Part shown: piece by piece, positions 1,086 through 32,749 of the stretch | Numbering within the stretch: position 1 is the stretch's first letter | Layout of the letters: each line of letters begins with the position of its first letter | Source of the DNA: Atractiella rhizophila | Taxonomy: Eukaryota | Direction of reading: 5' to 3' | Length of the DNA stretch: 44,588 nucleotides | Assembly: GCA_021432655.1 (NCBI GenBank) | Contig: MU271560.1 | Span: 1 to 44,588 of the forward strand | Notes under the pieces: generated by a model | Databases searched by the model: none | The model's input: the letters and a program-made list of their open reading frames with translations, nothing else | Told to the model about the DNA's origin: nothing | Made by a program: the position numbers and the translations under genes

Positions 1086-4000
1086 TTAAGAGCCCATTCT
1101 CAGTTTCGCTTCAGAGACTCACTCATTTCATGGTCATCAATCCGTATCTCCATTTTCCAGGTACTTTCTGTACCATTAGTCTTCGCCAGAGATGAATGCA
1201 ACAGAGGAAATTTACATCTGGAGGAAGGAATCGAGCAAGCTTTATTATCTGGCAGATTTTACGGTCCTACACGGGTCTAGTTCTCCTTGACGAGGTGATA
1301 GTAATCCGTACGTTAAGCACTCGATCCACACTTGCAGGCTAGCTCAAACCGGTCCTCTTTGTCCTCTTAGTTTTCCCCACAGGTTTGTGAGTTACTCAAA
1401 GCACCCCTACTGACACATGATCTCTCAGCGTCATATCAAAGGGTATTGGACATGAATGGTGTAGAGTACTTTCCTTCATCGAGTGATGGACTCGTGTGGC
1501 TTCGAGGTCAGTACTGATTTCCTCTTCCAGAATGTTCATGAAGAAAGTATTACTAACATTTTACACATCTCCAACATGTGTTGCTTGTTGTGGGACACTA
1601 CGTGATGTGATATCTGTGATTCCAGCAATTTCGAGCCCCCAAATTTTCATTATGAAATCTTTCGGTCCCATAACTGTTTCCGTTGCGTTGCTTTCTTCCT
1701 CAGCCTTTTGTGCACTTGTGCCTACAGAAGTTTGGTGCCATCACAAGTGCTATTGTCCATTCTACTTTCATCACAATATCCTCTGGCTATAATACCCCTG
1801 AAACTTCACTTGTCCTCAGTTATCCAATACTTTGGTACATTTCTCCGCGGTCCGCTTAAGGCGTGGAGTCATGTGGTCACTTTTGGCAAACTTAGTCGTC
1901 ATCGGCACTAGCAATGGCAGGAACGTTTTGGTCGTCTTTGACAATGTTGATCGTTATTAAAAGGAACAAGTTCAGTGTCATTTGATTAACTAAACTGAAG
2001 TCGAAACCTTTGCCAGTTGGTTCTGTTTCGTGCTTTCTGAACAGGCTGCCATTACAATTACACAATCGAGGTTTCACATGGATGAATAAAATGAGGAAAC
2101 GCAGCGACGCCAAAGCTACAACTAAGAAAGAAATGAAGTGACGGTGCCACGGCAACCATTCAGAAGGTTAAGACTGGGAAAGTCGTAATTCTGAGAATTG
2201 ATGGATTATCGCTGCTGGATAAACTAGGTTGCGCCTTACTTCCCTTATCAGCTCATTCTAAAGGAGTGAAGAACAAACCCTGGCTCCCAATATCAAACTT
2301 AACCCCGACTACCCTCTCCGCATCCCGCCTTGCAACGTGCGCAACATCATGGACAGTGGAACTGTAGAAAGATTTCAATCGTGTTCGGATCGCGGAGGAG
2401 GAGAAACATACATTTAAGTGCCATTATGGGTACCCCCCGATCGAGTTGTCGCAGGACGATGACATCCTTAATCTCGCTTGGCTTGGTTGATGAGACCAAG
2501 GGTGTTGCAACAATTGTCATTCAGCCACTAAAGGGTCAGGGCTTCAACACTTACATGCTGGACACATATGTTAGGACAATATTTGATATCAGAACAAACG
2601 AGACGAGGAAACGCGCTGGGAATGACTGCAGGAATCTACTGGTCACCTTGGCTCTCATTAGCGCATTCCTCCACACAGAATGACCACACACTTGGTTTAA
2701 TGATTGAAATGTAAACCGGCTACATATGTTTCTCAGCATTCACTGCAAAGTCCAGTCGCGTAATGCCCAAATGAGAGATGCATTGCAGCCAGGAGACCGA
2801 TGGTCCAAAAGAGGTGTGCTTCGAGCTCTCGTCATTCTTGATGCAGAGATTCGACACGCATACAGGATTTGACACATGCGGGTGCACATAGGACCAGTCA
2901 CTAGCCTGACAAAGTGTTATAGGAAGCGTAGAATGATGGAGGAGAGTTAAGACAAACAAGACTATGATCAAGTGATTAGGCGTTCTGAAGGTGGCGTGTC
3001 GGTTCAAGAAAACAGTCTCAAGGGAACCAAATGTGAAACCAGTTACTCCACGGAGCGTAACGTCACGAAGAAATCGTTCAAACCAACAAGCTTGATCATG
3101 CTTCTCCCCAGTCAAATTTAGTTGGTTAAGGAGTTAGTCGAAGAAGGGGGAAAGAACGGACCAGTCCGTGACATCCAGGAGTAGGAGAGCAGGGAGTTCA
3201 CAAACAATTAGCTTGTTAGCCACAAAATCAGTTGCAGGACTGACCATCCCGTCACATAATATGAGCGAGTAAGGTAGTGAGAGGACCGAACTGCTTCTGG
3301 TTTGGTTGGCAGCTTTTATGCCTTCTGACCATTTGGATTGAAGTCGTGCTTGTTGTTCATGCAGAAGCAAAAATTCGCCCGGTCTTTGAAAGATTTTGAA
3401 GCATAATGGTTAGGTAGGATCATGATGAATCAAAGTAAGCGGATTGAACAAAGAAGGGATCCGTATAAACTTCCAAGAGCGCGGATACCGTCCTCTCTGC
3501 CATTGTGATGCTGTTGTTGTATGGCGAACAATAATTTGAGGACCTCTTCTTCATGCATAGGGAATGCGCCTATACGCACCCACCGGAGGACGGAAAGATC
3601 TTCTCGCCTTTAGGCTCAGAGCCCCAGTTTCCTGTCTTACTTCGAGAACACCCATAAGGGTTCGTCCGCGAATAGCACGGCTCCATCCGTGCATAACCTA
3701 GAGTCAGCCATTGGTTGCGATTGATCACTCAGCTATCAATGGATGGGTGTTGGAGGAGTTGTACGCGAGCAACCTATCCGTTATCCTCCGGCACCTTTAT
3801 CGCCTGGCCCAACCTTAACCCAACTTACCTCTCACCCGCCAAACCTCCAAGCACGCCAATCCAGTTCTGGTATCGCTCCGACTGGAAGTGCGTTCGAAGG
3901 TGTGAGTCGAGGTCTATATGAAATTCGAACGCATTGTGTCTTTTGCCATCACTCTGGGCACTCAAGTGTCCAAACTGCTCCGTGGTTATGTTTGATTTCT

Positions 4001-5924: not shown

Positions 5925-7069
5925 TCACAAAGAGAGGGAAGCAACGAAGATGACTGCTCGATGGCTGGAAGGTATTCGATTAGGTGTAGCCGCGATGTTT
6001 GTGATGTTGGATTGATTGTATAGAGAACTTATTAAGCATGGTTGTTGGATTATTGGCTGCAAATTGATATTGATGTTTGCAAATGTGAGCATTTTTCTGT
6101 TGTCGTTGTTTTCTCGCCTTTTCTCTCTTTCGTTGAGTTTCGTTTGACAATGAAGCAGGTCCGACCAACTCATGCGCCGGGCTGACAGTGCATCCATCAT
6201 CGCATAGCCTCTCAATCCCCCCTTCGAAGGCCAGCCCACTCCACAATCGAGTCTAATACTCTCTCCCCCTCCTAACCTTAATGTCAACTGCAACCACCGC
6301 GTCACCGGCCACACACACGTACGTGCTCTCCAAGCAATCTCACTACTCTGCCCCCAAATTCGCTTCGTCTCTTCGACAGCTATTGCCGTAGGATTGTCGC
6401 GACTCAGTGAAACGTACTGGGTGTAATCCATGTTGACGGGAGGGAAGAAGGGTGGTGCAGCGGCAGTCGCCCTTGCCGCTTCCCAGACCGTATAAGCGGA
6501 GGCAGGTATAAACGGCGAGGATCCGGCAGCATGAATATCGTATGTACGCATCTCTGTGGAAACGGTGACATTGGACTCGTAGGTAGAAACCACGAATGTC
6601 CTATATCTATCCTGCAAGGAAGCATCTTTCATCGGAAGAGACTTCTCAGAGTCTTGGGAAGAATCGGTACGTCGCTGGATGATAGCGGCAAAAGTTTCTT
6701 CGAGTTTTTTGCCGAGTAAGCGTACTCGTCGCTGGAGCTTGAGGCGTTATTCAAAAACACGTTCTCCATGATCTCTTCGTACGCCGCAATGCATTGTCGA
6801 ACCGTCATTCCCAGCCTGCCGAGCATAAGCGCGATCCATCCACCGGTGGAAGTCCCACAAATTAGATCAAAAATATCGCAGGGACGAAGATCTTCGTCTT
6901 CTGGCACTTTGAGCAGGTGCCTAGCTTGAAGCATAATCTGCTCAAGCATGTATGCATCGACAATGGCGGCATCCGCTCCTTTTCCGCTCCAAAGGACCCG
7001 CAATCCCAACGGATTCGCCTTCTTGATATTTTCGGGGACTTTAAAAACCTTGACCGGATTTCGCGACAT
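5925..7069 (-). pseudogene. Patatin-like phospholipase paralogue without NTPase/TPR; 39-bp internal inversion, 1-nt frameshift, unrelated C-terminal tail
   Basis: KVFKVPENIKKAN, RPCDIFDLICGTSTGGWIALMLGRLGM, RTFVVSTYES and WEAARATAAAP align with the 19301-20638 ORF. Frameshift falls in the T6 run at 6705-6710; homology ends near 6330. Confidence 0.85.
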
Positions 7070-7955
7070 GTAGGTAAAGTGAGAAATGGTTTGCGGTGCG
7101 GTTGTTGAAGTACAAGGCTGGAGGTGACTGAAGGAACAAGAAAAGTTCCAGAAGTCAAATGGTTTCTAAGACCAATTTCATCAGCGCTTCTGCGTGTTAT
7201 ATAGACGCAATCTAAATAAATCAAGGTTGGCGTGGTAGCTTTGTCAACAGCAAGGAGACAAAGGCTTACGATCGTCAATTGGCATTCACGTTCGGGAGCT
7301 CGTCATAAGCTATTTTTGCCGCTTCCTCATATGCAGCTTCACGGAGAGCACGGCTACCCCTGTATCCTTCACCCAAGATACTTGTGAAGGCTATTTGGAA
7401 TCTCTGCTCTGCCACGTACGTCCACTATGGCAGATGGAACTTGTGAATGTAGATCTTAATCGTCTCATGAAGTAGTCCAAGGACAACCACACAACCCGTC
7501 TGTCTTACTTCTACACGCAACCTTTTCTGCACAATATTAAAGGAAGTACTGACCTTTCGAAAGGTAATTGAAACTCACTTTCCGCGCTCTCCAACCTATA
7601 AAAAAGGCCACAATCGCACGATATTCGAAATGACTTTTCCTAACAATGATTTCTTCAAGAAGCGTTCAATTCTCCACTCTGGAGCAGGCCGTTCACAATC
7701 AGAGGTTCGTGGTCAAGGACTGAAAAGGCAGCTCTGATTTTGGCTGTGTTTGGTTTATCTTTGACTTTCGTCTCTTCAGTTGCCCCGTTGCTTGTGGTAT
7801 CTCCATTGTTCTCTACTCTTTCGTACTTCCCTCTTGTTCCCTCGATCAAATAAATTGCCTTTATTCAAATCTTAATCTTGACGGCTCCTCCTCAGGCCCC
7901 TGTCAAAGTGGTTTCCTGGTTTTCCCGTGCTTTCCTCAATTCTGCAGCAAACTTG

Positions 7956-8195: not shown

Positions 8196-10438
8196 ATGGC
8201 CACAACTCTTCCACCTCACTCTGTCGGTATCCGTGCTTCTACCCCTCCCGCCAGCACCTCTGATAATCTTTCTCTAACAAAACCGACCCCGAAGCGACTA
8301 GCCAGCGGCTCTAACCATCACGGTCAAATCATTCCTGCTACAGAGAACGAAGGTGCCTACGACTTCGTCTGCGGCAATATGAAAGGAAAATACGTCACTG
8401 TATCTGCTGAAGACTTTCTCAAAATGCTGCCAGAGTATGGAGAACTTCCAGACTCGCCGCCAACACCTGATGTGTCAGGGCTCGAACCAACCCATTACGA
8501 CGAGTTCGTAAGTGCATTGTTCTTTCTAAAATCTTTTCAAAAAAAACAACCCAAAAAAAGGAAAAGAAACCCTTCCGCAAACAAACCGGGCAGCTCGTCA
8601 ACACTAGCGACAGCATCGACAGAGATTTTATCCCAGTGCTTGGGGTAGGCGGTGTCAAACCTGACCTGGTCCTCTATAGTTTTCACGGGGCGACCACTAC
8701 GATCATGAAGAGCGCCGAGTCGTTCGGCGAGTTTAAGAAGGCCCGCAAGGATGAACCTTCCCGCGATGAGAAAGGAGGCAAGGTGGTCGAGGGCGACTCA
8801 CAAACTTCAAAATTAACTCGCGGTCAAATCACCATTTACAGTAGCGTCATTCTTTCTTCCCAACAAAGAACCAGAGTTTTCTCGTTCTATGTTCGGGAAC
8901 ACCTCGCTCGTCTCCTCTGCCATTCTCGTGCAGGTTTCCTTGTGACCCCTTCGTTCAACTACGTGACGACACCCTACCTCCGCGAATTCTTCTGGCGCTA
9001 TACGCACGCATCCAATGCTGAAAGAGGGCATGACGAGACGATGCAGAAACTCCTTGAGGACGATGATCATTCCGAAGCGGCTAAAGCGAAACTTAACGTT
9101 ACAGCTAGCGAGCCACTCTTGAAGGTGGAGGTGGATAACAAGGTGTTCTACCTTTCCGAACCCTTCCTCTTTCGTCACAACCAACCCATCGGCCGAGGAA
9201 CAAGATGCTTCAAAGCTTACGATCCCCAACAGAAATACCTTGTCCTCCTCAAGGACACGTGGCGAAACACACAATATCGTCGGGAAGGTGAAGTCTATGC
9301 CGAATTGCACGAATCCAAAGTCCCAAATATCCTCCAGGTTATTGCCGAAGGTGATGTAAGGGGCAACCTCCAACACATCAAGCTATCGACAGACAAGGAA
9401 GACGAAAGTGAGATGGTACACTACCGAATTGTTCTGGCTAAAGTCAGACGGCCACTCGACAAATTTACATCCAGTTACGAGCTCGTGAAAGGATTTTCGG
9501 ATGCTTTTGAAGCTGCGCGGATGTGTCTTCACTTAAATGAATCTGATTTGCGAGCGTTGGCCGCTCACAGCTCACTTCGCTGCCTGGAGCAGACTCAAAA
9601 TGTTGCACCGTGATATATCTTTTGGGAACATCCTTCTTGGCCCAATTGAAGAAAGCCCGAATGGGTTTTTTTGGGAATTCGCAAAGAAGGAAATCAACCC
9701 TGACAATTCCCGGGAGCGAACGGTCCGTGCTTTTTTAATAATCTTGTGCAGTGGTGAATGGTGGAACAGGGCACTTACGAGTTCATGTCTCGTCGACTCT
9801 TGGAAGATATCGGCTCAACCCAGTGCATTCGCCACGAGCCCAAAGACGATATTGAGTCCTTCGTTTACGTTTTGGCCTGGACCGTACTTTCGCACGCTCA
9901 AAGCGAGTTGCCGGATGAAACGTGCCTCGATTTACTCCGTCCGTTCGATAGAATGCAGAACAACGCCAGGACAACAGCCACAGGTCGAAAGGCGATTATT
10001 ACAGGTGGTGTCGACGACCTCAAACTCTCTTCCAACCAGCTTCGGGATGTACTCGGGAAAATCTTCCGAAGCCTTTCTGACCGTTTGGTCCCTCGTGCGG
10101 ATATAGTGGAAAGAATTTTGGATGATCTCCAATCGGAGGGAGAGACAGACGAGTCGACAGAGGAGAGGACGGAGCGGACAATAGAGGAGAGGACGGAGGA
10201 GATGAGGCAGAAGATGAGGAAGAGGGCTAATAAGAAGGCGGACAGGAGGATTAAACGAATGACTACTCACAAGTTTATGTCGCAAGTGTTATTGGACGCT
10301 CTGAAGGATGAAGAGGGAATATGGAAAAGTCAAAAGGACAACGCTGTTTCTAGGGATCATGGTTCAAGTAACAAGAGGAAAGGATTAGCCATGGTTGCAG
10401 ATGGGCACAAGAGGTTCAGGAGTTCCAGTGCTCGCTAG
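8196..10438 (+). CDS. Fungal-type protein kinase (FunK1 / Pkinase_fungal family), multi-exon, probably damaged
   Basis: Ordered motifs KPDL..Y, EFK, RGQI..Y, GRGTRCF, LKDTWR, EG, HRDIS.GNILL, RT-intron-GTYEFMS, H..KDDIESF.YVL. Introns start near 8508 and lie at 9513-9570 (non-canonical donor) and 9723-9769. Confidence 0.85.
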
Positions 10439-15923: not shown

Positions 15924-15948
15924 NNNNNNNNNNNNNNNNNNNNNNNNN
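15924..15948. other. Assembly gap (25 N)
   Basis: Seen directly; abuts the TPR tandem array. Confidence 0.99.
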
Positions 15949-17695
15949 CAATGCTCCGAAACACAGCGGGCTTGACCCTGTCGAGATCCCACTTCCATGT
16001 AGAGCACCTTTGCCTCTTCGAAAGCCTTCAGAGCATCCTCATTCCGCCCACATTGAAAATCAATATCCCCAATGCTCCCGAACACAGTTGGCTTGACCCT
16101 GTCGAGATCCCCACTTCCATGAAGAGCACCTTTGCCTCTTCGAAAGCCTTCAGAGCATCCTCATTCCGCCCACATTGAAAATCAATATCCCCAATGCTCC
16201 GAACACAGTCGGCTTGACCCTGTCGAGATCCCACTTCCATGAAGAGCACCTTTGCCTCTTCGAAAGCCTTCAGAGCATCCTCATTCCGCCCACATCGAAA
16301 AATGAATATCCCCAATGCCGTGAACACAGATGGCTTGACCCTGTCGATATCCCACTTCCATGTAGAGCACCTTTGCCTCTTCGAAAAGCCTTCAGAGCAT
16401 CCTCATTTCCGCCCCACATTTGAAAATGAATATCCCCAATGCCCACAAACACAGTCAGCTTGACCCTGTCGAGATCCCACTTCCATGTAGAGCACCTTTG
16501 CCTCTTTCGAAAGCCTTCAGAGCATCCTCATTCCGCCCACATTGAAAATGAAATATCCCCAATGCTGCGAACACAGTTGGCTTGACCCTGTCGAGATCCC
16601 ACTTCCATGAAGAGCACCTTTGCCTCTTCGAAAGCCTTCAGAGCATCCTCATTCCGCCCACATTGAAAATCAATATCCCCAATGCTCCGAACACAGTCGG
16701 CTTGACCCCGTCGAGATCCCACTTCCATGAAGAGCACCTTTGCCTCTTCGAAAGCCTTCAGAGCATCCTCATTCCGCCCACATCGAAAATCGATCTCCCC
16801 AATGTTCCGGACGCAGTTGGCTTGACCCAGCCGAACTCCCACTTCTATGTAGAGCTTCTTCGCCTCCTGGTACGCCTTCAGAGCATCATCGTTCCGCCCA
16901 CATAGAAAATCGATCTCCCCAATGTTCCGGACGCAGTTGGCTTGACCCAGTCGAGATCCCACTTCTATGTAGAGCTCCTTCGCCTCCTCGTACGCCTTCA
17001 GAGCGTCATCGTTCCGCCCACATCGAAAATCAATCTCCCCAATGCTGTGAAACACAGTCGGCTTGACCCAGTCGAGATCCCACTTCTATGTAGAGCTCCT
17101 TCGCCTCCTCGTACGCCTTCAGAGCATCATCGTTCCGCCCACTTAGAAAATCGATGCCCCCAATGTTGCAGACGCAGATGGCTTGACCCAGTCGAGATCC
17201 CACTTCTATGTAGAGCTCCTTCGCCTCCTCGTACGCCTTCAGAGCGTCATCGTTCCGCCCACATCGAAAATCGATGTCCCCCATGCTCCGGACGCAGCGG
17301 GCTTGACCCTGTCGATCTCCCACTTCTATGTAGAGCTCCTTCGCCTCCTCGTACGCCTTCAGAGCATCATCGTTCCGCCCACATCGAAAATCAATCTCCC
17401 CGATGCTCTGGACGCAGTTGGCTTGACCCAGTCGAGATCCCACTTCTATGTAGAGCTCCTTCGCCTCCTCGTACGCCTTCAGAGCGTCATCGTTCCGCCC
17501 ACATCGAAAATCAATCTCCCCGATGCTCCGGACGCAGTCGGCTTGACCCAGTCGAGATCCCACTTCTATGTAGAGCTCCTTCGCCTCCTCGTACGCCTTC
17601 AGAGCGTCATCGTTCCGCCCACATTGAAAATCGATGTCCCCCATGCTCCGGACGCAGCGGGCTTGACCCTGTCGATCTCCCACTTCCATGTAGAG
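15949..17695 (-). repeat. Tandem array of about 14-15 near-identical 120-bp TPR-encoding units
   Basis: Unit GxRxGQAxCVxxIGxIDFxCGRNxDALKAxEEAKxLxxEV repeats with a 120-nt period up to the gap. Confidence 0.97.
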
Positions 17696-20638
17696 CTTTT
17701 TCGCCTCCTTGAATTTCATCCATGCATTCTGGTTCTCACCTAACCCTAAATAGCAAAGACCAAGAGACTGCGTTAGTGAACGCTTTAGTCTTAGCCATTT
17801 GGACTGCTCGCCTAACCCGAAATAGCAATAACCAAGAGACTGCGTCAGCAAACGCTTTAGTCCTAGCCATTTGGACTGTCTGTAACCCGGTGAAAGCGGC
17901 ATTCCTAGCCCCATGTCCACGACATCTATGGCCTGTTGGAACAGTGAAGGCGAGAGCCGATGTTTCAGGTATAGAAACTCCGATATATTCACCAAATGCT
18001 GCAGGATCGGTAAAGGATTTGAAAGGCATATCATGCTCGATAGCAGGACATGTTCAAGATTTGGGTATTGTTCACGGAACTGAAACAGTGCGTGTTGATC
18101 ATTATGGATCTCAAAATGTTGAATATTTGTCTCCGCTTTCTGCATAAGATGGTTCCCGAGAGGCAGGAGCGACCAAGCTATAGTCATTGAAAATGGTGAT
18201 TTGGACCGAGTGACAAGTGTGTTGATGTATTCACGAATAGGAGCGAGCATACGGAGATTGCCTGAAAGGTCATTGGCGAGCCCAATCTTCGAAATCACAC
18301 GGATGACTTTGTAGATATCCTCAGACTCTTCCAAGCTAGATATGAGTGTTGACAAATCACGGTGGGATAGACCGTCAGGAGCCCACGACAGCAGAGCAAG
18401 TGCAAAGAACCCGCGCTTTGCCTCCTTCTGGAGAGCTGGAGAATCGAGGGAGAACGATATAGAGGTATTGAGGGTGATTGCCTCTTCGCTATCTTCATCC
18501 CATAAAACAGCAACACTCGTCTTTTTCTCCTTCCACTTGTTTGCCAATTGTTCGAGTGTCATGGTTGAATCCTCGCTGGCACGTAGAGCGAATAGCTTGA
18601 TGGATAGAGCATGGAAATCCAATTGTCGAACCAAGTGTCTGACCAGCTGTTGTGAGAACTCATTTTCTCTCTGATATGAGTTTTCAAAGAGTTCTAGCCC
18701 ACTGTCTTCCGACAGACCACCAACGAAGACCCTGACAAACTTCCCCTTCACGCCTAAAGATTCTGCTTGAGCTCCCCGATGGGCCACGACAAGTACTGAA
18801 CCCTCTGAGTTCTTCGAAAGAAGTGTTCGAAAGAAGAGATGTTTTTTGTCATCGTCGGCATGAAGCGGAGTTTCAAAGTTATCCAAAACGAGGAGGCATT
18901 TTCGACTTCCGAAGTAATCTCCCACAACTTCTGGCGATGTTTTGTTGGACTTAGGCAGTGCGAAGATATCGTTGCAGATGTGGTCCGAAAGTTTGGCAAA
19001 GGTGTCGAAGTTGTCACAGCGAACCCAGAAGCGGAGATCTTCTCCAGTGCCCCGTGCCAGATCTGTGAAGGACTGCTTGATCTCTTCGCAGTGCACGGTG
19101 TCGAGTGCAACGGTGGATTTCCCGTTTCCAGCTCCACCCACAATCGCAACGTGGCGTCCTTCCAGTATAGCTTTTCTAGCGTGTTGGATCTCATCTTCGC
19201 GGCCAAAGCAAGAGCCTGGAGGTGGTAATGGTAAGCGCCGACGAACTGCCATCCGTTCACCGAATGCTACAAAGACCTCAATGTGGTATTTGCATAAGCG
19301 TTAAGAGAACATACCCTGCACGAGGCATTGAGCAGCATTGCGTGCTTCGTGACCCATAACTTCCATATAGGCTTTCGTCCGACCCACGACGTCCTTTGTT
19401 CGCTCCCACTCCTCCCACTTGACGCCTCCCATCGTGTGGACTGAAAAGCGGTGATAGCGATGCCCTAGACCGCGATCCTGCATCTTCATCTTCAACTGAT
19501 CTGCTACCTGGGAACAATCTTCGACGATTGCCTTCACAGCAAGTTCAAGCTCGCGTTTGGTAGGACCCCAATTAACAGCCGGAGCGATCCCCGACCCCAG
19601 AGAGACAAGACAGGCGACTTCGCTTCCATGTCCCCATATGCGCTTTGCCTCGTCAATCGCTATTGCCGCTGGGTTATTGTTCCCTATGGTGACATATTCC
19701 GTATTGTCAATGACGATAGGACGAAAGAAGTGATGGGCAGAGGAAGTCGCTCTTGCTGCTTCCAACACCGTACATCGTGCAGCAGAATGAACTGCATTGG
19801 GCCCGTCGTACGTGCGCATCTCTGTTGAAACAACTGCACTTGATTCGTACGTTGACACGACAAAAGTTCTACATCTATCCCCAATAGCCGCGTCCTTCAT
19901 AGGGAGTCGAGAGGACGACAGGGACGATGGAGCGTGTCTTGTGATGATCTTCTGGAGGACGGTTTCGAGCGTCTTTGCAGAGTATGCGTAGCCTTCATTC
20001 GAAAGTGGAGCTCCTTGGGAAAACACGTCCTGCACGATCTCTTCGTACGCGCTGATGGATTGTCTAACAGTCATGCCCAACCTTCCGAGCATGAGAGCGA
20101 TCCATCCTCCCGTGGAAGTGCCGCAGATGAGATCGAAAACATCGCACGGTCGGACTTCTTCTCCTTCGGGAACGTCGAGGAGGTTTCCAACGTGGAGCAT
20201 GACGACTTCCAGCATGTAAAGGGTGGAGAAGGTACAAATCCCTCCGTTATCGATGGCAAGGATTCTGACACCTTGATCGTTCGCCTTCTTGACATTCTCC
20301 GGGACTTTGAAGATTTTAACGGTTTGGACTGGGGAGGAGACGCACGATGGAAAAGCTGATGGAGTGGGAGCCCTAGAGATAACAGGCGTTGCAGTACTCG
20401 ATAAGGAGCGGAATAGGGGCCGAAAAACTTTCTCTCTGACGCTGAGGAATGGACTGGGTCGAGAATTCAGCCGCATCACTGAGAGGTTTCGACCTCCGAT
20501 GCCTTCATTAGGACCAGGATCTCCTCGCGAATCCGCGCTGAATGCGTAGTCGTCGTCAGACAAATTCCGAACGTCTTCATGGTTGCTAGGATTTGAGGAA
20601 GAAGGCTTAGGCGTCTTTCCGAAGGCTGAGGCGTCCAT
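15949..20638 (-). CDS. Fungal NLR-like protein: patatin-like domain + STAND (NB-ARC-like) NTPase + TPR repeats; 3' end lost in the gap
   Basis: Exon 1 (20638-19315): IDNGGI, GTSTGG, EAARATS, CLVSLGSG. Intron 19314-19267 joins it in frame to CFGREDE, Walker A GGAGNGKS, Walker B LLVLDNFE, LSIKL, RMLAPIREY and then 40-aa TPR units. Frameshifts below ~17050 sit mostly in homopolymers next to the gap and may be sequence errors. Confidence 0.93.
17740..17880 (-). repeat. 72-bp tandem duplication just before the TPR array
   Basis: QSKWLGLKRLLTQSLGYCYFGLGE followed by QSKWLRLKRSLTQSLGLCYLGLGE. Confidence 0.9.
19267..19314 (-). other. 48-nt GT-AG intron between the patatin and NTPase exons, containing an in-frame TAA
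   Basis: Minus strand CAGG/GTATGT...TTTGTAG/CATTC; splicing gives ..LVQAFGERMAVRR..; an intron of the same length and position exists at 31450-31497. Confidence 0.9.
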
Positions 20639-30763: not shown

Positions 30764-32749
30764 TCATTTCTCTTGCATGATGCAATGTACATCAGCTATT
30801 AATCTGCAGCAGTCTCCTTCACCTCCTAGGTCACCCATTGCACTGCCTTCTAGAGCACCTTTGCCTCTTCGAACGCCTTCAGAGCATCCTCATTCCACCC
30901 CCATTGAAACTTGATCACCCCGATGTTGCGGACGCAGTTGGCTTACCCTGTCGAGATCCCACTTCGATGTAGAGCACCTTTGCCTCTTCGAACGCCTTCA
31001 GAGCATCCTCATTCCACCCCCATTGAAACTCGATCTTCGCGATGTTGAAGACCCAATTGGCTTGATCCAGTCGAGCTCCCACTTCTGTGAAGAGCACCTT
31101 TGCCTCTTCGAATGCCTTCATAGCATCCTCATTCTGCCCACATTGAAAATCGATGTTCCCGGTGTTGAAGATGCAATTGGCTTGACCCAGTCGATCAAAT
31201 ATGGTCCAAGCCTGGAAAAGTTGTCAAAGTTGTCACAGAAGCGGAAATCTTCTCGAGTACCTGCTAGGGCCAGAGTGCAGGATGTCGAGTGCAACGGTGG
31301 ATTTTCCATTTCCAGCTCCACCGACAATCGCGACGTGGCGGCCGATAAGGATAGGTTCTCTGGCACGTTGAATCTCAGCCTCTCGCCCAAGGAAGGTGCT
31401 GGGGGCGGTAACGGAAACCTCCGACGGACTGCAATCCGTTCACTGCACACTATCGGAACATCAACATGGTATCGAAACAAGAGGTGATAGATCATACCTT
31501 GTACGAAGTGGTCAACAGCATTACGAGCTTCATGACCAATCACGTCCATATACGCCTTCGAACGGTCGACCACGACCTGGGTTCGATCCCACACCTACTT
31601 TATGCTTCCCATACCGATGTCCCATACGTTGTTCTTGCATCATCATTATCACCTGATTCGCCACACAGGGAGCCATCCTCGATGAAAACCTTCACAGCCC
31701 TCTCAATCTGAGGTATCGTATGACCCAATGGGACAGCCTGAGCGAGCCCTGACCCAAAGATACAAGACAGGCTACTTGGCTTCTTTATCCCCAAATCCTC
31801 TTTGACTCTTCAATCGCTAATGCTGCTGGGTTATTTTCCCATGGCGAATGACGATAGGACGGAAGACGTCAGGATCAAAGGAAGGTGCTCTTGCTGCCTT
31901 CCGCACCACACATTGAGCAGCAAAGCGAGGTGAATGGCGGACGTCGTACGCGCGCACCTCCGTCAAAATTACGGCGTCTGACTCGTATCTTAAGCCGAAG
32001 AAAGTTCTGCATCGATCTGCGACATAGTCATCCTTCATAGGAAGATGGGACGATTGTTCTGATGAAGGAGCGAACCGTGACATGATGTCCAAGAGGACGG
32101 CATCGAGACTCTCTGCGGAGTACGCGCCGCCTTCTTTCGACATTAGAGCATCTACGGAGAAAACCTGCCGTACGATCTGCTCATATGCGCGTATGCATTC
32201 TCGAACAGTCATTCCCAATCGTCCGAGCATGAGGCAATCCACCCTCCCGTGGAAGTGCCGCAGATGACATCGAAAGCATCGCACGGCCGGACGTCTCCCT
32301 CTGGAACTTGAAGGAGGTCTCCAACTTGGAGCATTACGACTTCGAGCATATAAAGGGTGGAGACAGTACAGATGCCCCGTTGCTGATGGCGAGGATTCGA
32401 ACTCCTTGTTCGGTTGTCTTCTTGACATTCTCCGGGACTTTGAAGATCTGGGAGTTTGAACATGGGCGGAGACCACGAATGCGATAGCTATTGGGGTGGG
32501 AACGTCTAAGGAAATGGGCTAACGGCGGGACGTGAGACGGCGAGATATTGCTGAGCTACCGCTTTGACCAGAAATGGGCTGGGTCGAATGCAACTGCAGG
32601 ACCGAGGCGGTGTGAACTGCGTCAGGTTCCACTGATGTAATTTCCTGCGATTTGGCGCCGAAGTGGTTATCGTCATCAGACAAGTTTCCAGGGCCTTCAT
32701 GATCGTGATCGTTGGTATGCGATGAAGAAGGAGTGAGTGGGGTATCCAT
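30764..32749 (-). pseudogene. Decayed paralogue of the patatin-STAND-TPR gene
   Basis: NLSDDD, FKVPENVKK, RPCDAFDVICGTSTGGW, MLGRLGMTVR, conserved intron, AVRRRFPLPPP, GAGNGKS and about 3 TPR units; several frameshifts and a large internal deletion near 31200. Confidence 0.92.

Follow-up and report, generated by a model that had tools for sequence, protein, structure and literature searches.

A one-off micro-inversion across the glycine-rich loop of a decaying patatin gene copy in Atractiella rhizophila

Inversion-only template-switch events of the '1-3-2-4' type, which involve no repeats, make up 45% of the high-confidence human–chimp events described by Loytynoja and Goldman (2017; PMC5453318), and the events presented in the part of that work used here are mostly non-coding. 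Definite microinversions between human and chimp were also collected by Potapova, Kondrashov and Mirkin (2022; PMC8755829), where, in the portion of the study drawn on here, 59 of 59 measure 17–33 nt, with inverted repeats of 3–75 nt. The spacer inversions reported from S. cerevisiae concern spacers of 2–5 bp between arms of more than 9 bp, and change at most five residues, according to the sections of that study considered here (Abraham and Hazkani-Covo 2021; PMC8604942). As to the gene family concerned in the present work, fungal NLRs of the PLP-1 type are characterized, in the relevant part of the source, by the combination of a patatin-like phospholipase, a nucleotide-binding domain and TPR (PMC10197012).

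Here we analyse a stretch of 44,588 nt from Atractiella rhizophila (GenBank assembly GCA_021432655.1, contig MU271560.1, positions 1 to 44,588 of the forward strand; "the window"), in which one patatin gene copy (copy A) carries a short segment in opposite orientation to its neighbours. As in the '1-3-2-4' events, a short reverse complement stands in place, no repeat was made, and flanks and length are unchanged; the published events are, as far as that source goes, human–chimp ones and mostly non-coding, whereas the segment in copy A rewrites 13 codons in a fungus. Its fit to that class would be one of end product, from which alone the mechanism can be inferred. With the other human–chimp collection, as far as that account goes, the segment shares a precise reverse complement of tens of bases found by way of a close relative, but at 35–39 nt and with only a 2-nt TG/CA match it does not fit that class. 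Like the yeast spacer inversions, it lies in fungal coding sequence and replaces adjacent amino acids with the frame unchanged; unlike those described in the cited sections, it inverts about 39 bp, changes 12 of 13 residues and has no arms. The resemblance to the PLP-1 type, as that type is defined in the part of the source used here, lies in the domain order of an intact paralogue in the window (copy B: patatin, NACHT/STAND, TPR), with copy A belonging to the same family by descent; copy A differs in retaining only the damaged patatin part, and the A. rhizophila family as a whole in lacking the canonical DGG aspartate.

The inverted segment

The features on which the comparison turns are the following.

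6953..6991, minus strand: inverted segment, 39 nt at most; 35 nt (6955–6989) if the TG/CA ends belong to the flank
6629..7069, minus strand: copy A first frame, a 146-aa ORF from the ATG at 7069 to a premature stop; N-terminal half of the patatin domain
17030..20638, minus strand: copy B, intact paralogue with patatin, NACHT and TPR; loop at 20219–20257

The N-terminal glycine-rich oxyanion-hole motif of patatins is of the G-G-x-R/K type, and in the A. rhizophila patatin family the glycine-rich loop motif is DNGGIR. On the coding strand of copy A this loop is absent: the minus strand from 6991 to 6953 translates as WSGKGADAAIVDA, and the motif is found on the opposite strand, where the same 39 nt translate as CIDNGGIRSFSAP. 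The corresponding loop of copy B reads AIDNGGICTFSTL at 20219–20257, so that the coordinates given for it in the initial annotation (20222–20260) were 3 nt off. The replaced stretch of the patatin domain comprises strand-end, glycine-rich loop and helix-start residues; the initial annotation was therefore right that the loop is covered, but not that the segment corresponds exactly to it, as residues on either side also lie inside.

At the nucleotide level, the reverse complement of 6953–6991 matches the copy B loop at 24 of 39 positions, compared to 15 of 39 for the segment as it stands (register 20219–20257). As a control, reverse-complement identity across 126 windows of 39 nt from the collinear flank averaged 9.3 positions and never exceeded 16. 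On both sides of the segment, copy A runs collinear with copy B, with an identity of about 75% (123/164 on the left, 37/54 on the right). Once flipped, the segment differs from copy B by synonymous changes at six codons and non-synonymous changes at five, with the remaining two of the 13 codons identical, which argues that it evolved as coding DNA in what is now the opposite orientation.

Protein comparisons point the same way. A search with the copy A ORF returned 43 matches, the ten best of which are all named Atractiella rhizophila, and the closest of them, P0002, lies on another contig. P0002 reads LRVL-CIDNGGIRSFSAP-YMLE, i.e. it agrees with the opposite-strand translation of copy A at 13 of 13 residues, and the flipped reading agrees with P0003 and P0004 at 12/13 and 11/13 residues, respectively, while the peptide as it stands never exceeds 4/13 against any of the three. 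With the segment set aside, copy A shares 82 of 87 positions with P0002 (24/26 plus 58/61). The reported 85% identity between the two is thus almost wholly due to the inversion, and the inversion must be younger than a recent duplication. The match to the Pfam Patatin profile begins at profile position 20 in copy A, at position 2 in copy B and at position 1 in P0002–P0004. Scored against a local HMM built from 40 homologues with P0001–P0004 left out, the copy A ORF obtained 123.1 bits as it stands and 153.9 bits after the 39 nt had been reverse-complemented in a script, a gain of 30.8 bits. These results bear out the proposal of the initial annotation that the loop motif of copy A is present backwards.

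The segment is thus the reverse complement of the ancestral one, between collinear and unchanged flanks and with unchanged length, the ancestral orientation being taken from paralogue proteins and short contig ends rather than from an orthologue. The window contains no second copy of the 39-mer in either orientation, and an exact scan of metagenome contigs for it gave 0 matches.

A search of the A. rhizophila paralogues for the same inversion, a check suggested from the outset, found none among 17 paralogue proteins, of which 16 carry the forward loop and one (P0054) is without the region. In P0054 (731 aa), a 14-residue peptide stands in place of about 40 residues, the glycine-rich loop among them. 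This peptide looks like the sequence that follows, read out of frame, and may reflect a deletion and frame change in the gene model rather than an inversion; this would be another way of losing the same loop, in the paralogue or in its gene model. Comparison of copies A, B and C with each other gave no further micro-inversion (485, 468 and 273 windows of 30 nt), a weak negative given that the scan was confined to ungapped alignment columns and missed the known inversion between A and B.

Decay of copy A and its family in the window

Copy A is broken in several ways besides the inversion.

6700..6710, minus strand: -1 frameshift site in a run of A, relative to copy B and close paralogues
6333..6710, minus strand: copy A second frame, rest of the patatin domain; tblastn match to residues 222–342 of copy B

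Two ORFs of copy A match Pfam Patatin (PF01734; threshold 27.7 bits), the one at 6629–7069 with 33.3 bits over profile positions 20–80 and the one at 5925–6632 with 27.8 bits over positions 124–177. The alignment of A and B places a 1-nt deletion in the copy A run of A near 6704–6706, and the resulting -1 frameshift explains why the ORF ends prematurely at 6629. With copy B as the query, tblastn recovers copy A only for residues 107–342, in two pieces whose frames differ and whose overlap lies at 6662–6710; similarity to B stops at 6333, and the same search finds no NACHT or TPR similarity downstream of that point. Stops close the frame upstream of the ATG at 7069, whether or not splicing is taken into account. 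The ORF of copy A retains the nucleophile elbow G-x-S-x-G as GTSTG, which copy B and all close paralogues also have, and at the D-G-G/A catalytic-aspartate site copy A reads YVSLS.

Five public runs contain part of 6000–7500, and four of them (X1, X2, X4 and X5) were compared with the window as Logan contigs at a minimum likeness of 90. The X1 contig at 6495–6740 matches the window with 0 gaps, and three X2 contigs from paralogues have one extra base behind 6704.

Given this degree of damage, the inversion may or may not have come first. It is possible, although in our view unlikely, that it was the first inactivating hit in a working gene and that frameshift and truncation followed later. Loss of the glycine-rich loop alone is expected to abolish patatin catalysis, and the perfect agreement of the segment with P0002 points to a young event. 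Against this, P0002–P0004 are themselves short or partial models of 202–227 aa that lack NACHT and TPR and diverge soon after AYEEI, so that the sub-lineage was perhaps fragmentary before the inversion occurred. The initial annotation held that the inversion had disabled the copy; the copy is indeed broken, but this cannot be credited to the inversion alone in a gene that is frameshifted near 6704–6706, loses its similarity to the intact paralogue at 6333 and has no NACHT or TPR. In an otherwise broken copy A, the biological consequence of the inversion is probably nil.

Two of the runs, whose kind was guessed to be RNA, bear on transcription at the locus.

7166..7553, minus strand: intron of 388 nt, GT..AG, upstream of the copy A ORF; absent from the X5 contig

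The X5 contig (151 nt) matches 7034–7167 exactly and continues with 17 letters identical to window positions 7556–7572, and the skipped 388 nt are bounded by GTCAGT...TTAG on the minus strand. It seems to represent a spliced sense transcript of the copy A locus, at the 5' end of that copy. The X5 contig ends short of the inversion, and transcription of the inverted stretch itself is plausible. An X1 contig stops matching at the same base as the X5 contig, and X1 leaves 7173–7325 uncovered, with only a 4-mismatch contig at 7333–7496, an interval inside the intron delineated by X5. This hole hints that X1 may be RNA of the same strain, but holes in cover prove nothing, and the hint is given no weight here. 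Separately, an X4 contig at 6059–6354 (plus strand) joins 6084 to 6189, skipping 104 nt with GT..AG on the plus strand, which points to a spliced transcript that either runs antisense to copy A in its 3' part or is situated immediately downstream of that part.

The window as a whole is a cluster of one intact and two decayed NLR copies, all three on the same strand.

19267–19314, minus strand: putative copy B intron of 48 nt, GTATGT...TAG, proposed from the sequence only
30853..32734, minus strand: copy C, heavily degraded patatin/NACHT/TPR with several stops and frame changes

Copy B comprises a patatin ORF at 19301–20638 (Pfam Patatin, 52.7 bits) and a NACHT/TPR ORF at 17030–19252, which the 48-nt intron would join in frame into one protein of about 1,180 aa. 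Copy B would then combine patatin, nucleotide-binding and TPR parts in one protein, as PLP-1-type NLRs do, provided that this intron is spliced; copy A does not combine them. TPR repeats go on past the stop of the 740-aa ORF of copy B, at 15960–17055 on the minus strand and up to a 25-N gap at 15924–15948; copy B may extend further at its 3' end, or the sequence may be wrongly joined there. In copy C, remnants of NACHT (31275–31418) and TPR (30853–31196) are recognizable.

A Pfam scan of 17 window ORFs, out of 20 ORFs of at least 150 aa, identified Patatin, the NACHT/STAND and TPR-type families of copy B, Pkinase_fungal and one weak, sub-threshold DUF1690, and no recombinase family, in a scan of ORFs that could miss spliced genes. 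The Pkinase_fungal kinase, at 8196–10438 on the plus strand, occupies two or more overlapping ORFs that differ in frame (8636–9613 and 9758–10438), reflecting either introns or another decayed gene.

Two further observations concern the family at large. Positions 6714–7019 are highly repeated in the X2 genome, with a summed depth of about 3,300–3,780 at a likeness of at least 90%, compared to about 105–176 for single-copy pieces, which suggests a few dozen recent copies. In addition, copy B (19700–19760) has YVTIG where the solved CBASS phospholipase has YVDGG. The D is missing at the DGG site in 11 of 11 A. rhizophila-family sequences caught by the pattern, and DGG or DGR is present in 6 of 6 others; the family members in this comparison are P0006, P0010, P0045–P0051 and P0054, and the other matches come from other fungi or metagenomes. 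An invariant D lies 6–7 residues upstream of the missing aspartate (VIDK/VIDN). In the patatin-NLRs of A. rhizophila, either the catalytic dyad may have shifted, or the domain may be no conventional lipase.

Breakpoints, mechanism and alternative readings

We consider it highly probable that a single in-place micro-inversion of 35–39 bp hit copy A, a decaying member of a large, recently duplicated patatin-NLR family. The inversion would have put 13 codons on the opposite strand, so that translation now yields WSGKGADAAIVDA in place of the oxyanion-hole loop CIDNGGIRSFSAP. The segment ends in TG...CA, as first noted in the initial annotation, and this leaves each breakpoint ambiguous by 2 nt, between 6953/6991 (39 nt) and 6955/6989 (35 nt). 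With arm ends allowed within -5 to +5 nt of the breakpoints, the longest perfect flanking inverted match is the 2-nt TG/CA itself, and no repeat pair bracketing the segment was found. Inverted repeats of at least 3 nt at or near the breakpoints, which mark the inverted-repeat-mediated class, are accordingly absent, and an inverted-repeat hairpin mechanism was rejected on the grounds that the inverted match at the flanks measures only 2 nt.

It is true, as the initial annotation remarked, that the inversion keeps the frame and creates no stop, but this is unremarkable, since an in-place inversion never alters length and 62–64% of simulated 39-nt inversions made no new stop (806/1290 in the patatin ORF of copy B, 1391/2175 in its NACHT-TPR ORF). 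Hence, we discarded the combination of being in frame and free of stops as a sign of selection.

Two routes could have produced the inversion. One is a switch-and-return replication error in which the complementary strand was copied ('1-3-2-4' in the four-point template-switch model), and the other is re-ligation, in flipped orientation, of a doubly cut fragment; either would have been helped only by the 2-nt inverted microhomology TG/CA. The end product is the same for both, and they are not separable here. In either case, the inversion would be a mutation scar without a regulatory role. The suggestion of a one-off template-switch or repair event made in the initial annotation is supported, as the inversion is real, unique among the paralogues examined and accompanied by only 2 nt of inverted microhomology.

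A variant of this scheme, which we regard as very unlikely, is that the patch was copied not from copy A's own strand but from an oppositely oriented paralogue elsewhere, through an inter-locus template switch or an aberrant conversion tract. Near-identical 39-mer templates would be available in such a highly repeated family (summed X2 depth of about 3,780 at 6765–6815, compared to about 105–176 for single-copy pieces), and the end products of the two origins would look alike. However, P0002 is the closest paralogue for the segment (13/13) as well as for the flanks (82/87), so that no foreign donor is needed, and none of the three copies in the window is oriented opposite to the others.

The inverted state itself is represented in public reads. 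An X1 contig at 6861–6982 (depth 19.3) spans the left junction, 6952/6953, in inverted orientation and without a mismatch over its 122 nt, with 92 letters outside the segment and 30 inside, the latter incompatible with the forward orientation. By the rule used for bridges, i.e. 31 letters on each side, this contig is one letter short; it ends inside the segment because 31-mers wholly inside it are shared, as reverse complements, with forward-orientation paralogues. It belongs to a mismatch-free X1 chain (6367–6524, 6495–6740, 6711–6890, 6861–6982) in which neighbours overlap by 30 nt. No contig over the right junction, 6991/6992, is found among the 20 of 143 pieces listed. X1 excludes an assembler error, but it may come from the same strain, or even the same project, as the assembly and does not count as an independent isolate.

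An artefact of assembly or sequencing, in which the true locus is forward and the assembler crossed a shared 39-nt repeat node backwards, is therefore extremely unlikely. The 39-mer is common to many forward-orientation paralogues, the graph is tangled at this position, with an X2 opposite-strand joint from 6953 to 6992 and loose ends at 6953 in both X1 and X2, and the window contains a scaffold gap, the 25 N at 15924–15948. Yet assemblers cannot invent junction k-mers, and the words of the left junction are present in the separate contig build of X1, at a depth of 19.3 and with 0 mismatches over 122 nt. We consider this reading largely refuted already.

The same contigs bear on whether the orientation varies. 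The X2 joint from 6953 to 6992, on opposite strands, occurs in two contigs, and the TG/CA ambiguity shows in two letters of the joint that suit either side. Among the 14 of 33 loose ends listed, those at 6953 belong to at least three X1 and at least four X2 contigs. Where the flanks of the forward-orientation X1 contigs are readable, about 6 positions in 30 deviate from the window, and the summed depth of the X2 joint contigs is 912 compared to about 105–176 for single-copy pieces; this identifies both of these sets of contigs as paralogues, not alleles. Among the 20 of 143 pieces listed, none joins window-identical flanks to the other orientation, and none displays the orientation of X2 at this locus. 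X2 is a second, somewhat diverged isolate: it differs from the window in every covering contig at several positions (e.g. 6424, 6860 and 7357), and contains 0.66 of the sampled words, a share from which we estimate a divergence of about 1%.

We attach scarcely any probability to the idea that the orientation of the 39 nt differs between isolates, with for example the X1 strain inverted and X2 forward, and that the copy A fragment modulates its intact relatives. Bacterial and phage invertible switches of the Hin/Gin/Fim type need inverted-repeat sites and a dedicated recombinase, and both orientations occur in the population. The copy A segment resembles them in standing opposite in orientation to its neighbours, and differs from them in lacking inverted-repeat sites, with no recombinase among the 17 scanned window ORFs.

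We give the least probability of all to an inversion that would turn a cell-death effector domain on and off, whether programmed or polymorphic, so that the locus would occur in both orientations within or between isolates. In favour of this reading, two X2 contigs (loose end at 6954) pass into the forward orientation from a left flank whose likeness to the window is at least 90%, and patatin-NLRs such as PLP-1 trigger regulated cell death (PMC10197012). Against it, the flanking inverted repeat is at most 2 nt, the scanned ORFs include no recombinase family, a frameshifted copy A without NACHT and TPR would not become a working protein by being flipped back, the forward X1 contigs with readable flanks belong to other paralogues (about 6/30 differences), and the X2 joint contigs are multi-copy (912 compared to about 105–176). 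The on/off switch envisaged in the initial annotation thus finds no support in flanking inverted repeats, in recombinase families among the 17 scanned ORFs or, among the contigs listed, in one that joins window-identical flanks to the other orientation.

Significance for fungal NLR families

If isolates did differ in orientation, short inversions without repeats would recurrently give rise to presence/absence variation affecting effector domains in rapidly expanding fungal NLR families, and a transcribed copy A would, if the modulating role proposed above were true, supply a patatin fragment of 146 aa, altered in its loop, as a modulator of the intact relatives. What the evidence describes is a genuine one-off micro-inversion in a decaying paralogue. 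As such, it provides a clean, well-bounded case of an in-place, repeat-free micro-inversion that rewrites 13 codons, and it illustrates that a catalytic motif can vanish from a protein and yet stay intact on the other strand. Aligners and annotators register such inversions only as an unexplained divergent patch or a missing motif. Mutations of this class have been documented mainly in primates and yeast, and the case adds one in a fungal coding sequence. Overall, the inversion in copy A reveals no new regulatory mechanism; it represents a known kind of mutation in a new example, within an expanded fungal NLR family.
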